Shown here: positions 1,889-51,323 of the stretch, piece by piece
Layout of the letters: the number at the start of each line of letters is the position of its first letter
Numbering within the stretch: the first letter of the stretch is position 1
NCBI RefSeq assembly: GCF_041248615.1
Contig: NZ_CP158426.1
Length of the DNA: 64,000 nucleotides
Direction: 5' to 3' (one strand)
Source: Escherichia coli
Lineage (GTDB): Bacteria > Pseudomonadota > Gammaproteobacteria > Enterobacterales > Enterobacteriaceae
Translations under genes and position numbers: made by a program
Notes under the pieces: generated by a model
Told to the model about the DNA's origin: nothing
Database searches by the model: none
The model's input: only the letters and a program-made list of their open reading frames with translations

Positions 1889-2653
1889 ATGAATAACTCC
1901 CCCCGCTACCCGCAGCGCGTTCGCAATGATCTGCGCTTCCGTGAACTGACTGTGCTACGCGTTGAGCGTATTAGCGCCGGTTTTCAGCGCATTGTCCTTG
2001 GCGGCGAGGCGCTGGACGGTTTTACATCGCGCGGCTTTGACGATCACAGCAAACTCTTCTTTCCTCAATCTGATGCTCACTTTGTGCCGCCAACGGTAAC
2101 GGAAGAGGGTATCGTCTGGCCGGAAGGACCACGCCCACCGTCGCGTGACTATACGCCGCTGTATGACGAACTACGCCATGAACTGGCGATTGATTTCTTT
2201 ATTCACGAAGGTGGCGTCGCCAGCAGCTGGGCAATGCAGGCGCAACCGGGCGATAAACTTACGGTGGCAGGTCCGCGCGGTTCGCTGGTGGTGCCAGAGG
2301 ATTACGCGTATCAGCTGTATGTCTGCGATGAATCCGGAATGCCCGCACTGCGCCGCCGCCTGGAAACGTTGAGCAAACTTGCCGTTAAACCGCAAGTTAG
2401 CGCACTGGTTAGCGTGCGGGATCACGCCTGCCAGGATTATCTCGCGCACCTTGATGGTTTTAATATCGAATGGCTGGCGCATGATGAGCAGGCGGTAGAT
2501 GCGCGTCTGGCGCAGATGCAAATCCCTGCCGATGATTACTTCATCTGGATAACCGGCGAAGGCAAAGTCGTTAAGAATTTAAGCCGCCGCTTTGAAGCGG
2601 AACAGTATGATCCACAGCGGGTACGTGCAGCGGCTTACTGGCACGCAAAGTAA
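1889..2653 (+). CDS. yqjH: Siderophore-interacting ferric reductase YqjH (NfeF)
   Basis: 254-aa ORF; FAD-binding siderophore-interacting protein family; K-12 synteny. Confidence 0.9.
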   Translation: MNNSPRYPQRVRNDLRFRELTVLRVERISAGFQRIVLGGEALDGFTSRGFDDHSKLFFPQSDAHFVPPTVTEEGIVWPEGPRPPSRDYTPLYDELRHELAIDFFIHEGGVASSWAMQAQPGDKLTVAGPRGSLVVPEDYAYQLYVCDESGMPALRRRLETLSKLAVKPQVSALVSVRDHACQDYLAHLDGFNIEWLAHDEQAVDARLAQMQIPADDYFIWITGEGKVVKNLSRRFEAEQYDPQRVRAAAYWHAK

Positions 2654-2660
2654 CTGATAT

Positions 2661-2700
2661 ATAAAAAGAAAAAGGCTGATGATTTCTCGTCAGCCTTTGC
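2661..2700 (-). terminator. Hairpin plus T-run (minus strand) immediately 3' of the tRNA fragment; likely the original ileX terminator, also closing yqjH
   Basis: aaaggctgatga / tcgtcagccttt stem with T-run on the minus strand (A-run 2661..2670 on plus). Confidence 0.5.
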
Positions 2701-2706
2701 TATATC

Positions 2707-2753
2707 TGGTGGCCCCTGCTGGACTTGAACCAGCGACCAAGCGATTATGAGTC
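2707..2753 (-). repeat. attR: displaced 47-nt 3' fragment of tRNA-Ile2 (acceptor/T-arm/anticodon-stem 3' side)
   Basis: Matches 43/47 nt of the intact tRNA at 51123..51169; homology stops abruptly at 2753. Confidence 0.85.
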
Positions 2754-2879
2754 ATGAGGCAAGTTCGTTCTATATTGTTTTTGTTTGTTCGTGATTGCTT
2801 TATTAGTTGTTTGTAATCAATAAATTATGTGATTTTCCCTGTCTCCGCTTGGTTCCGTTTTTTCTTCATTGTACGATCG

Positions 2880-2903
2880 TTACCTGACCCATTACCTGAC
2901 CCA
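2880..2903. repeat. 24-bp direct repeat TTACCTGACCCATTACCTGACCCA (left copy), 47 bp upstream of int
   Basis: Identical 24-mer at 51043..51066; contains an internal tandem of ACCTGACCCA. Confidence 0.8.
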
Positions 2904-2949
2904 AAATCACGAGTTATTCTGATTGTTACTGGTTTAGAAAAGAGGTTCT

Positions 2950-4266
2950 ATGGCCGTCAATCTTACTGAAACAGCCATCCGAGCATTGAAAGCAAAAAAG
3001 ACATCGTTCTATGTCTGGAGCAACAGCTCTCAACGTGGCACTGGACGACTTGGTGTCAAAGTTCAGCCTTCTGGCAGCAAGATTTTCTATTTCCGCTATT
3101 ACGTGGAAAAAGGGAAAAAAGAAAGATTCATTCAATTGGGTATATGGCCTGAGATGAAACTGGCCACAGCGAATGAACTGGCAAAAAAGTATGGTGCCTG
3201 GCTCATTGAAGGAAAGGCTCCCCAGGCAGAACTGGAACGACAACAGTTTGCAGAACAGCAGCGGATACAACTCCATCAATCACAGGGCTCATTTGAAGCA
3301 TTGATTCATGGTTATGTTAACAAAATGAAAATTGATAATAAGAGGACATGGCAGGATGTTCTGAAACGCCTTGAAAATGAATGCTATACAGTGATCCCCC
3401 GTGAAACTAAAGCTAAAGATGTGACTTCCGGACAGATTAAACATATCCTGGCCGGGATCATTCAGCGCGGTGCTGTGGTTCACTCTAACCGGATCCGTTC
3501 TTACCTGATGGCTGCATTTAACTATGGACTGAAAGCAGATAACGATCCGATGAACACAAGTGTAGGGATTACTTTTGGGCTGGAGGCAAATCCGGTGTCA
3601 GTGATACCGAAACAGTCATCTGCTGAAAAAGTCGGTGATACCTGGCTGACACTTGAAGAGTTGCGTTTTCTAATGGAACATTTTGCTGAAGCAACCAACG
3701 TTGGATTATTGATGCAACATTTGATCCGATTCTGTATCTATACCGGAGGGCAACGTCCTTTCGAAATGATCGCCAGTCAGTGGTGTGATGTTGATTTTCA
3801 ACAAAAAACGCTGCTGGTGACTGCTGATGTCTCTAAAAATAAACGAGAGCATTTGATACCGTTGACTGAATCAGCATTACAGGAATTATCCTGTGTGCAG
3901 GAGTTAACAAAAGAAAAATCCAGCCCTTACATTTTTCCACTTTCGACTAATGGTAAGCGTCCGGTTCGTACGGACAGTCTGGCTCGCGCTATCATGTATT
4001 TCCGGGCTTTTAATCCTGACTTTAAAATTTTTACAGCACGTGACTTACGTCGGACCTGTAAAACGTTAATGGGAGAAGCTGGGATCAGTAAGGAAATCCG
4101 CGATCGTATTCAAAATCATGCGTTGAACGATGTCAGTTCAAAACATTATGATCGATACGATTATTTGCCAGAAAAACGCAGAGCACTTGAGATCTGGGAG
4201 GACCGGGTTAATAACTATCAACAGCAAACAGGCAATAATGTTGTCAATCTGTTTGGCAGAAGGTGA
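2950..4266 (+). CDS. P4-like tyrosine integrase (N-terminal arm-binding domain plus C-terminal catalytic domain)
   Basis: 438-aa ORF; N-terminus MAVNLTETAIRALKAKK...; C-terminal R...HxxR...Y catalytic residues (DLRRT, NHAL, SKHYDRYDY). Confidence 0.9.
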   Translation: MAVNLTETAIRALKAKKTSFYVWSNSSQRGTGRLGVKVQPSGSKIFYFRYYVEKGKKERFIQLGIWPEMKLATANELAKKYGAWLIEGKAPQAELERQQFAEQQRIQLHQSQGSFEALIHGYVNKMKIDNKRTWQDVLKRLENECYTVIPRETKAKDVTSGQIKHILAGIIQRGAVVHSNRIRSYLMAAFNYGLKADNDPMNTSVGITFGLEANPVSVIPKQSSAEKVGDTWLTLEELRFLMEHFAEATNVGLLMQHLIRFCIYTGGQRPFEMIASQWCDVDFQQKTLLVTADVSKNKREHLIPLTESALQELSCVQELTKEKSSPYIFPLSTNGKRPVRTDSLARAIMYFRAFNPDFKIFTARDLRRTCKTLMGEAGISKEIRDRIQNHALNDVSSKHYDRYDYLPEKRRALEIWEDRVNNYQQQTGNNVVNLFGRR

Positions 4267-7458: not shown

Positions 7459-7686
7459 ATGTGGAAGCCGTTAAGAGATGAGAACCGTTTATCAATTTTG
7501 AAGATCTATGGATACACCTGTGACAGACTGGTACGAGAAAAGGAACGCCAGAAAATTACGTCTATTTCTCGTTCACAAGCCTGGAAACTGGAACGTGAAG
7601 GAAAATTCCCGCCACGTAAAACTATTGGAAAGAAATCCTGTGGGTGGTTATTAAGTGATCTATTGTGGTGGATTAGTCAGTATTAA
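7459..7686 (+). CDS. AlpA-family phage regulatory/excisionase-like DNA-binding protein
   Basis: 75 aa; AGGAG RBS; HTH plus EREGKFPPRK..G.....W...L..W motif typical of AlpA/Phage_AlpA. Confidence 0.7.
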   Translation: MWKPLRDENRLSILKIYGYTCDRLVREKERQKITSISRSQAWKLEREGKFPPRKTIGKKSCGWLLSDLLWWISQY

Positions 7687-24012: not shown

Positions 24013-26769
<2,757 letters not shown>

Positions 26770-51042: not shown

Positions 51043-51066
51043 TTACCTGACCCATTACCTGACCCA
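51043..51066. repeat. 24-bp direct repeat TTACCTGACCCATTACCTGACCCA (right copy), 57 bp from the tRNA 3' end
   Basis: Identical to 2880..2903. Confidence 0.8.
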
Positions 51067-51070
51067 ATTC

Positions 51071-51113
51071 AAAGGAAAAAGAAAAAGGGTTAGCTGGTTT
51101 ATTAGCTAACCCT
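51071..51113 (-). terminator. Island-borne rho-independent terminator directly downstream of the reconstituted tRNA
   Basis: Minus strand: stem agctaaccct / agggttagct followed by tttttcttttt. Confidence 0.55.
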
Positions 51114-51122
51114 TTGTTGTGT

Positions 51123-51198
51123 ATGGTGGCCCCTGTTGGGTTTGAACCAACGACCAAGCGATTATGAGTCGCCTGCTCTAACCACTGAGCTAAGGGGC
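51123..51198 (-). tRNA. ileX: tRNA-Ile2 (anticodon CAU, lysidine-modified), attL side of the island
   Basis: 76-nt cloverleaf GGCCCCTTAGCTCAGTGGTTAGAGCAGGCGACTCATAATCGCTTGGTCGTTGGTTCAAACCCAACAGGGGCCACCA with encoded CCA; K-12 position between mug and yqjH. Confidence 0.9.
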
Positions 51199-51323
51199 CA
51201 TGGTAGCGGATTATAAAGTAACTCCGTGTCGCAATCCAGCCATTACCGCGCGCCTGCTGTTTTTATAAACAATGTATTTTCAATCCGTTATACTTTTCCT
51301 GGTGATGTTAGAAAGGAGTAAAT

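Follow-up and report, generated by a model that had tools for sequence, protein, structure and literature searches.

The 24-bp direct repeat that lies just inside both ends of a 48-kb island in Escherichia coli consists of four 12-bp units, two at each end, and on the available sequence evidence these units are very likely arm-type sites at which the tyrosine integrase (Int) encoded by the island docks with its N-terminal Arm-DNA-binding domain. Integrase arm-type sites had been suggested in a first-pass annotation, and the reading is supported by a fixed geometry, by a word common to both arms and by covariation of that word with the Int N-domain. The window (the whole stretch of DNA analyzed, 64,000 nucleotides of contig NZ_CP158426.1) matched NZ_LT599825 at 100%, and its host DNA is that of E. 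coli. The island occupies ileX (tRNA-Ile, CAU anticodon), between nfeF and mug. Features used below are given by position in the window, with strand in parentheses.

2707..2753 (-): displaced native 3' part of ileX (47 nt), with the native terminator before it; chromosomal half of attL, identical to the tRNA 3' half of the K-12 empty site
2734..2753 (no strand): attL copy of the 20-bp core CGACCAAGCGATTATGAGTC, with the crossover inside it, from junction/empty-site alignment
2815..2827 (+): predicted IHF-consensus site AATCAATAAATTA (WATCAANNNNTTR), between core and arm sites, at a conserved position
2849..2877 (+): candidate int promoter with conserved hexamers, -35-like TTGGTT (2849-2854), 17-bp spacer and -10-like TACGAT (2872-2877)
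2880..2891 (+): putative arm-type site P'1 (TTACCTGACCCA) on the int-proximal arm, exact match at a conserved position
2892..2903 (+): putative arm-type site P'2 (TTACCTGACCCA) on the int-proximal arm, 46 bp short of the int ATG
2950..4266 (+): tyrosine integrase, 438 aa, from Pfam and translation
7459..7686 (+): AlpA-like helix-turn-helix protein, 75 aa, candidate excisionase (recombination directionality factor), from the RefSeq call of a helix-turn-helix regulator and from homologues
51043..51054 (+): putative arm-type site P1 (TTACCTGACCCA) on the distal (tRNA-proximal) arm, starting 108 bp before the core
51055..51066 (+): putative arm-type site P2 (TTACCTGACCCA) on the distal arm, exact match at a conserved position
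51084..51115 (-): element-supplied terminator hairpin and T-run for the regenerated tRNA, a terminator-like site between arm sites and tRNA that differs from the native terminator beside the left fragment
51124..51199 (-): intact hybrid ileX, with chromosomal 5' half and element-supplied 3' half, from ARAGORN, RefSeq and alignments
51151..51170 (no strand): attR copy of the 20-bp core, from junction/empty-site alignment

The crossover was mapped by aligning the K-12 empty site to both island junctions. At the left junction the K-12 match covered the native terminator and the 3' half of the tRNA and ran to ...GATTATGAGTC at 2753, and at the right junction it resumed at CGACCAAGCG (51151); a 20-bp core was the sole stretch that both junctions and the empty site had exactly in common. 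These match limits place the crossover inside the core CGACCAAGCGATTATGAGTC (2734-2753 / 51151-51170), in the anticodon stem-loop of the tRNA. The junction alignments also showed compensatory T-stem changes in the element-supplied tRNA 3' half. The intact tRNA at 51124-51199 was called tRNA-Met (CAT) by ARAGORN and tRNA-Ile by RefSeq. Both 24-mers were missing from the K-12 attB; they are island DNA and therefore not the recombining termini.

The repeat TTACCTGACCCATTACCTGACCCA (2 x 12 bp) was found by exact search at 2880-2903 and 51043-51066, both times on the + strand and nowhere else in the window, which confirmed the identical, same-orientation copies first annotated; no third copy with 3 or fewer mismatches was present in the window. 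The number of copies of the 24-mer expected by chance was 0, and no match arose in 100 dinucleotide-preserving shuffles. An internal tandem of ACCTGACCCA had been described within it. The tandem was real; its unit was not that 10-mer and proved to be 12 bp (TTACCTGACCCA x2), and exact 12-mers occurred at these four positions only in the window. As annotated, the left copy lies between the displaced 47-nt 3' fragment of ileX (2707-2753) and int (ATG at 2950), and on the right, 57 bp separate the end of the 24-mer from the 3' end of the intact minus-strand tRNA (51124-51199). Measured against the core, the distal-arm 24-mer begins 108 bp ahead of it and the int-proximal one 146 bp past the core start, with a 126-bp gap left after the core end (tandem start at +127). 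The 24-mers are thus outside the crossover region, on both arms, and are dissimilar to the core sequence. DNA flanking the two copies is unrelated, and the sole alignable block is a separate, tRNA-derived stretch of ~47 bp. Because the flanks do not align, the repeat is not part of a longer duplication, and such a duplication was ruled out as its carrier.

The integrase was assigned the Pfam domains Arm-DNA-bind_3 (PF13356; residues 5-97, E = 4.9e-13), Phage_int_M (residues 115-195) and Phage_integrase (residues 232-391), so that a separate N-terminal arm-DNA-binding domain stands beside central and catalytic ones. Residues 35-98 gave a weak match to the solved integrase N-domain 3JU0. The catalytic residues of a tyrosine recombinase (R269, K296/K298, R364-D-L-R367, H390 and Y400) were invariant across 16 homologues. 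Box II (window 4036-4050, Int residues 363-367) reads A-R-D-L-R-R-T, and an Arg (R364) replaces the first His of H-x-x-R; this Arg was invariant in the 16 homologues, down to 51% identity. The first-pass annotation had called the element P4-like, a description that fits the domain architecture and fails against the curated P4-type model, since NCBIfam PRK09692 scored 72.3 bits against a family cut-off of 434. By these sequence measures the integrase is a separate family, distantly related to the P4 type and of the same architecture.

Like P4 and CP4-57, CP4-6 and CP4-44, the island combines this integrase architecture with insertion in a tRNA gene, and it shares a backbone of the CP4 type: AlpA-like helix-turn-helix protein, YfjI, inovirus Gp2/YfjJ, GTPase, Ag43, DUF932, antirestriction, RadC/JAB, YeeU/CbtA and DUF4942 genes. 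It differs from P4 and the CP4 elements in the PRK09692 score (72 bits vs 434), in a crossover at the anticodon stem-loop and not at the extreme 3' end, and in box II, with R-D-L-R instead of H-x-x-R. P4 attP reportedly contains several arm repeats, as Pierson and Kahn are said to have described in 1987. Besides Ag43 and a type I restriction-modification system, the cargo includes genes for sugar and lactate utilization. Inside the island, an IS3-family transposase remnant contains a group II intron reverse transcriptase/maturase (ltrA; window 24684-26192), and the cargo is broken up by several further IS elements (IS2/IS3, IS1414, ISKpn26).

For comparison among relatives, 79 loci, one genome per species, were gathered by integrase homology alone and not by motif. 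In all 20 species with an Int at least 84% identical, tandem 12-mers stood at -71/-59 from the int ATG (-67/-55 in locus L026), and the core lay at -213 to -217 from the ATG in 19 of these 20, that is, wherever it was detected. Other cargo is found in E. coli relatives with an int region of about 76% nucleotide identity, and one is apparently at ileY; in these relatives the int-proximal arm has diverged save for the 24-mer and the bases just upstream, and the exact 24-mer is kept on both arms at the same spacing, with a different intervening terminator. An independent sample came from IMG/VR, in which 33 independent stretches contained the exact 24-mer, all in one of two contexts: the distal one, with the core 108 bp downstream of the 24-mer (17/33), and the proximal one, with the core 146 bp upstream and int 71-72 bp after the start of the tandem array (16/33). 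None of the 33 stretches had the 24-mer outside these two arm contexts. In the distal context, the 24-mer marks exactly where elements become similar to one another, and two of the proximal arms had three or four tandem units. The check proposed at first pass, a search for the motif in att regions of related islands, found it at fixed positions on both arms, with 33 of 33 IMG/VR occurrences in the arm contexts.

The number of int-proximal 12-mers varies, with three in L090 (5384-5419) and four in L099 (554-601) and in L049. An extra, inverted 12-mer was present at -37 (-34 in L026) in 19 of the 20 close species, the exception being the E. coli/E. albertii lineage. In the 84-87% relatives (L002, L003, L009-L026) this third copy lies 10 bp past the tandem, as TTACCTGACCCn-N10-nGGGTCAGGTAA, and would give the int 5' UTR a 12-bp hairpin as well. 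In the window lineage (E. coli and E. albertii, at least 96%), 2904-2949 has been replaced and the inverted copy is gone; not every copy is therefore indispensable. Two loci labelled as Flavobacterium/Flavobacteriales MAGs (L013 and L060) carried integrases and arms of Enterobacterales type (87% identity) and Aliivibrio type, and are probably mis-binned contigs.

In relatives whose Int is 41-58% identical, the tandem pair of 12-bp units was kept at +124 to +150 from the core with a different word. Most of these elements use the same anticodon-loop target, and an inverted third copy often follows the pair. Lineage-specific words included TTACGTCACCCA/CTACATCACCCA, AAGTACACTT, TAACTACACCCA, TTAGATCACCC, TTGTTTGACTAA and TTACTTGACTAA, together with TAACTGCAGTAA, TTACTACAGGCA, TAACTAGACCC and others; the word of an Aeromonas element was AAGTACACTT and that of a Motilimonas element TACTTGACTAA. 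At least ten lineage-specific words occupy the same positions. Six small islands, for which both ends fell in one locus, carried their own word on both arms, at -108/-96 and at about +127/+139. The longest string common to the two arms of one element was 12-31 nt; between elements with different words it was 6-10 nt, and in shuffles at most 12 nt. The distal arm was read for about six distinct words, and the Pantoea/Erwinia group (57-58%), whose islands exceed the 10-kb flanks, was left out.

A hybrid junction was observed in Salinivibrio sharmensis (L042:5872-6190), where an exact E. coli-type 24-mer in distal geometry is followed by the core and by a proximal arm with another word (TTGTTTGACTAA x2 plus an inverted copy), the integrase being 50% identical. 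Here two family members that differ in arm word stand in tandem, and the E. coli-type word is shown to occur in Vibrionaceae as well. In two Aeromonas loci (L039 and L041), the tRNA gene ~210 bp upstream of int is complete and not a 3' fragment, so that each 6-kb island has a full tRNA-Ile(CAU)-like gene on either side; either these elements target tRNA genes in tandem or their attP contains an entire tRNA.

Covariation of the arm word with the proteins of the element was assessed by Mantel analysis of 18 dereplicated, phylogenetically related loci. Over these 18 loci, word similarity correlated with the Int N-domain (r = 0.67), the Int catalytic region (r = 0.57) and AlpA (r = 0.41). The correlation with the N-domain persisted when the catalytic region was controlled (partial r = 0.44, permutation p about 0.0005; 18 loci). 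With the N-domain controlled, neither the catalytic region (partial r = 0.09, non-significant) nor AlpA (partial r = 0.03, non-significant) added anything in the same 18 loci; with AlpA controlled, the partial for the N-domain was 0.59. In these 18 related loci the motif therefore changed with the arm-binding domain and did not covary with the candidate excisionase. Loci L056-L063, whose word resembles the E. coli one, had N-domains relatively well conserved against the window Int; the N-domain was not so conserved in most intermediate lineages with other words, and a few unscored distant loci also gave a ratio of ~1.0. Since the sample is small and the loci are related, the covariation is supportive rather than decisive. 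To that degree it indicates that the arm word tracks the Int N-domain, and not the catalytic domain or the AlpA-like protein.

The strongest competing explanation, that the 12-mers bind the AlpA-like excisionase, or both AlpA and Int, instead of being Int arm sites, is unlikely on balance. Excisionase sites such as those of lambda Xis and TorI are typically direct repeats in tandem, spaced by about one helical turn. AlpA-like homologues were found in 46 examined loci (one annotated as AlpA family, in strain ET881), AlpA sequence broadly follows lineage, and the window (7459-7686) shares the gene with nearly all relatives and with every island examined in detail; an argument from absence failed, since even 4-kb minimal islands encode such a protein. 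Matched sites on both arms are nevertheless characteristic of Int arm sites, while characterized excisionases typically act on one arm, and the 12-mers stand on both arms with matched words. The partial correlations given above (0.03 for AlpA with the N-domain controlled, 0.59 for the reverse) point the same way, as does a natural swap: L052 resembles L049, L050 and L054 in the catalytic region (72%) and in AlpA (61-66%), yet departs from them in its word and in its N-domain (only 39-44% identical).

Between core and arm sites, a perfect match to the IHF consensus was found in the window, and the site stood at +62 from the core end in 20 of 21 arms of the window clade (Int at least 84% identical) and was absent in L026; its four N positions vary within the clade and its specified positions are constant. 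Over the wider family a match was present in 27 of 63 arms, vs about 1.1 in shuffles, and was absent or degenerate in many distant lineages. Downstream of this site, promoter-like hexamers (2849-2877) abut the first 12-mer. They are conserved in relatives of ~75% nucleotide identity amid diverged surroundings, with TACTAT as the -10 there, and the predicted transcription start falls inside P'1. A block of the form CATTnnnTAC/T...ATC directly upstream of the first arm site (window 2867-2879; L027-L072) was seen family-wide, even with other words. As it does not co-vary with the word, a host factor may bind this block, or it may represent the int promoter's -10 region. The first-pass annotation had proposed that the left 24-mer may overlap the int promoter; the conserved, abutting -35/-10-like hexamers favor this, and a consensus promoter scan of 2600-3100, which gave no site at threshold, does not. 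An overlap with the int promoter is plausible for the left copy.

A position 46 bp upstream of the int ATG, directly past conserved -35/-10-like hexamers, would also suit an operator or promoter element of int with no role in recombination, and the inverted copy of the 84-87% relatives makes an operator-like palindrome. Such an exclusive role is very unlikely when the right copy is considered. At ~48 kb from the left one, convergent with the tRNA and downstream of DUF4942, that copy precedes no gene when the island is integrated; it is exactly 108 bp from the core in every relative with a readable distal arm; and a pure operator would have no need of a second, matched copy on the opposite arm with a set distance to the crossover.

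The other possibility raised at first pass, that the element itself recombines at the 24-mers as its true termini, is highly improbable, and so is the variant in which they are crossover sites of a nested element. They are same-orientation direct repeats near both ends, and 16 E. coli genomes carry a tandem island pair joined through a single 24-mer. The K-12 empty site, however, has no 24-mer; similarity to it stops at the tRNA core, with the crossover inside the 20 bp mapped above, and the regenerated tRNA has an element-derived 3' half. The collapsed junction of the tandem pairs is near-identical among strains mostly of one collection and fits a single deletion between 24-bp repeats. The 24-mer was likewise rejected as an att core or integration-generated direct repeat, attB lacking it and the breakpoints lying at the tRNA core. 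Origin by chance, or as the neutral remnant of an ancient duplication, has nothing in its favor beyond the small size of the repeat, and its probability is negligible given that 0 matches are expected by chance, that the positions are fixed in 20 species amid diverging neighbors and that other words stand there in diverged relatives.

The tandem pair was examined in E. coli ET881 (NZ_CP100890; L121, L005:930-1100), where a ~23-kb island of the 76% type is followed by one of the 96% type at ileX. The two are joined by a single 24-mer, and the tRNA core, the terminator and the proximal arm between the repeats have been deleted. The same collapsed junction was found in 16 of 5,426 complete genomes, mostly frog-associated ET/ES strains, and so is probably the product of one event. 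Among complete E. coli genomes, no intact attP-like tandem junction of this lineage covering at least 80% of the query was found.

Arm-type sites are textbook elements of lambda-like integrases; those of lambda (P1, P2 and P'1-P'3) are part of its intasome. As in lambda, the tyrosine integrase is of the heterobivalent kind, its N-terminal arm-binding domain being separate; short repeats unlike the core sequence lie on both arms ~100-150 bp from the crossover, the int-proximal (P') arm has them in tandem, and a predicted IHF-type bend site falls between core and arm. Unlike in lambda, the arm domain is of another Pfam family (Arm-DNA-bind_3 / DUF4102 type), the arm units are 12 bp and two per arm, and the target is a tRNA anticodon stem-loop, the tRNA 3' half being regenerated by the element; these features are read here from sequence. 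To our knowledge, arm-type sites have been mapped for very few DUF4102-type integrases, which mobilize many enterobacterial and vibrio islands. In the searchable literature, no binding or recombination experiment was found for this integrase family, and searches covering the motif string, ileX islands and P4, CP4 or DUF4102 arm sites returned general precedents only and no account of these sites.

The integrase-arm mechanism of the lambda kind is summarized in PMC2951348. In the KplE1 (CPS-53) prophage, the P' arm sites of IntS overlap the intS promoter and IntS was shown experimentally to repress its own gene (PMC2951348). As in KplE1 IntS/TorI, int of the island points away from attL and its candidate promoter lies inside the recombination region (PMC2951348), and the autorepression layout of KplE1 corresponds to the arrangement proposed for 2849-2903 of the window. 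The two differ in that KplE1 uses an argW site, a conserved TAAA arm motif and the TorI directionality factor with mapped attL sites, and in that int of the island adjoins the displaced tRNA fragment, not the intact tRNA.

From the observed sequence, geometry, conservation, covariation and crossover location, we infer Int binding, a role for IHF, a promoter and autoregulation, and these would combine as follows. In the excised circle attP would read P1-P2 (51043-51066), 57 bp with the tRNA terminator, the tRNA 3' half with the core, 126 bp with the IHF-like site, P'1-P'2 (2880-2903), 46 bp and int. Int would bridge arm and core, with its N-domain on an arm site and its catalytic domain on a core site, and a DNA bend, probably made by IHF at 2815-2827, would join arms and core into an intasome. 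Within this complex the core would undergo recombination with the anticodon stem-loop of ileX or ileY. Integration would split the sites, leaving P' in attL beside int and P in attR beside the regenerated tRNA; excision would require both sets again, probably with the AlpA-like protein. Int bound at P'1/P'2 would probably also repress its own promoter, autorepression being proposed because these sites lie directly downstream of the conserved -35/-10-like hexamers.

The feature is ordinary in kind but unusually well backed by the comparison of related islands, and its added value is a family-wide set of matched words and N-domains at fixed geometry. If the sites are read as proposed, the full functional attP, ~300 bp running from 51043 via the core to 2903, can be read from sequence. 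The integrase family spans ~8% of complete E. coli genomes (about 455 of 5,426 for this integrase), many Enterobacterales, Vibrionaceae and Aeromonas. In these hosts the arm sites help to delimit islands, to predict excisability and to explain tandem or fused islands at ileX and ileY, and the at least ten words linked to N-domains are a ready set with which to study DNA reading and to build orthogonal integration systems. More speculatively, the family may be a natural library of pairs of N-domain and 12-bp word whose diversification was driven by competition for the tRNA-Ile(CAU) site, an idea that we consider less probable than not. If it is true, islands with different words could sit in tandem and excise independently, as the Salinivibrio L042 junction suggests, and islands with the same word would cross-react and could fuse by deletion between repeats, as in ET881-type strains. 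The words would then be determinants of incompatibility and orthogonality, and a readable recognition code for the Arm-DNA-bind_3 domain.
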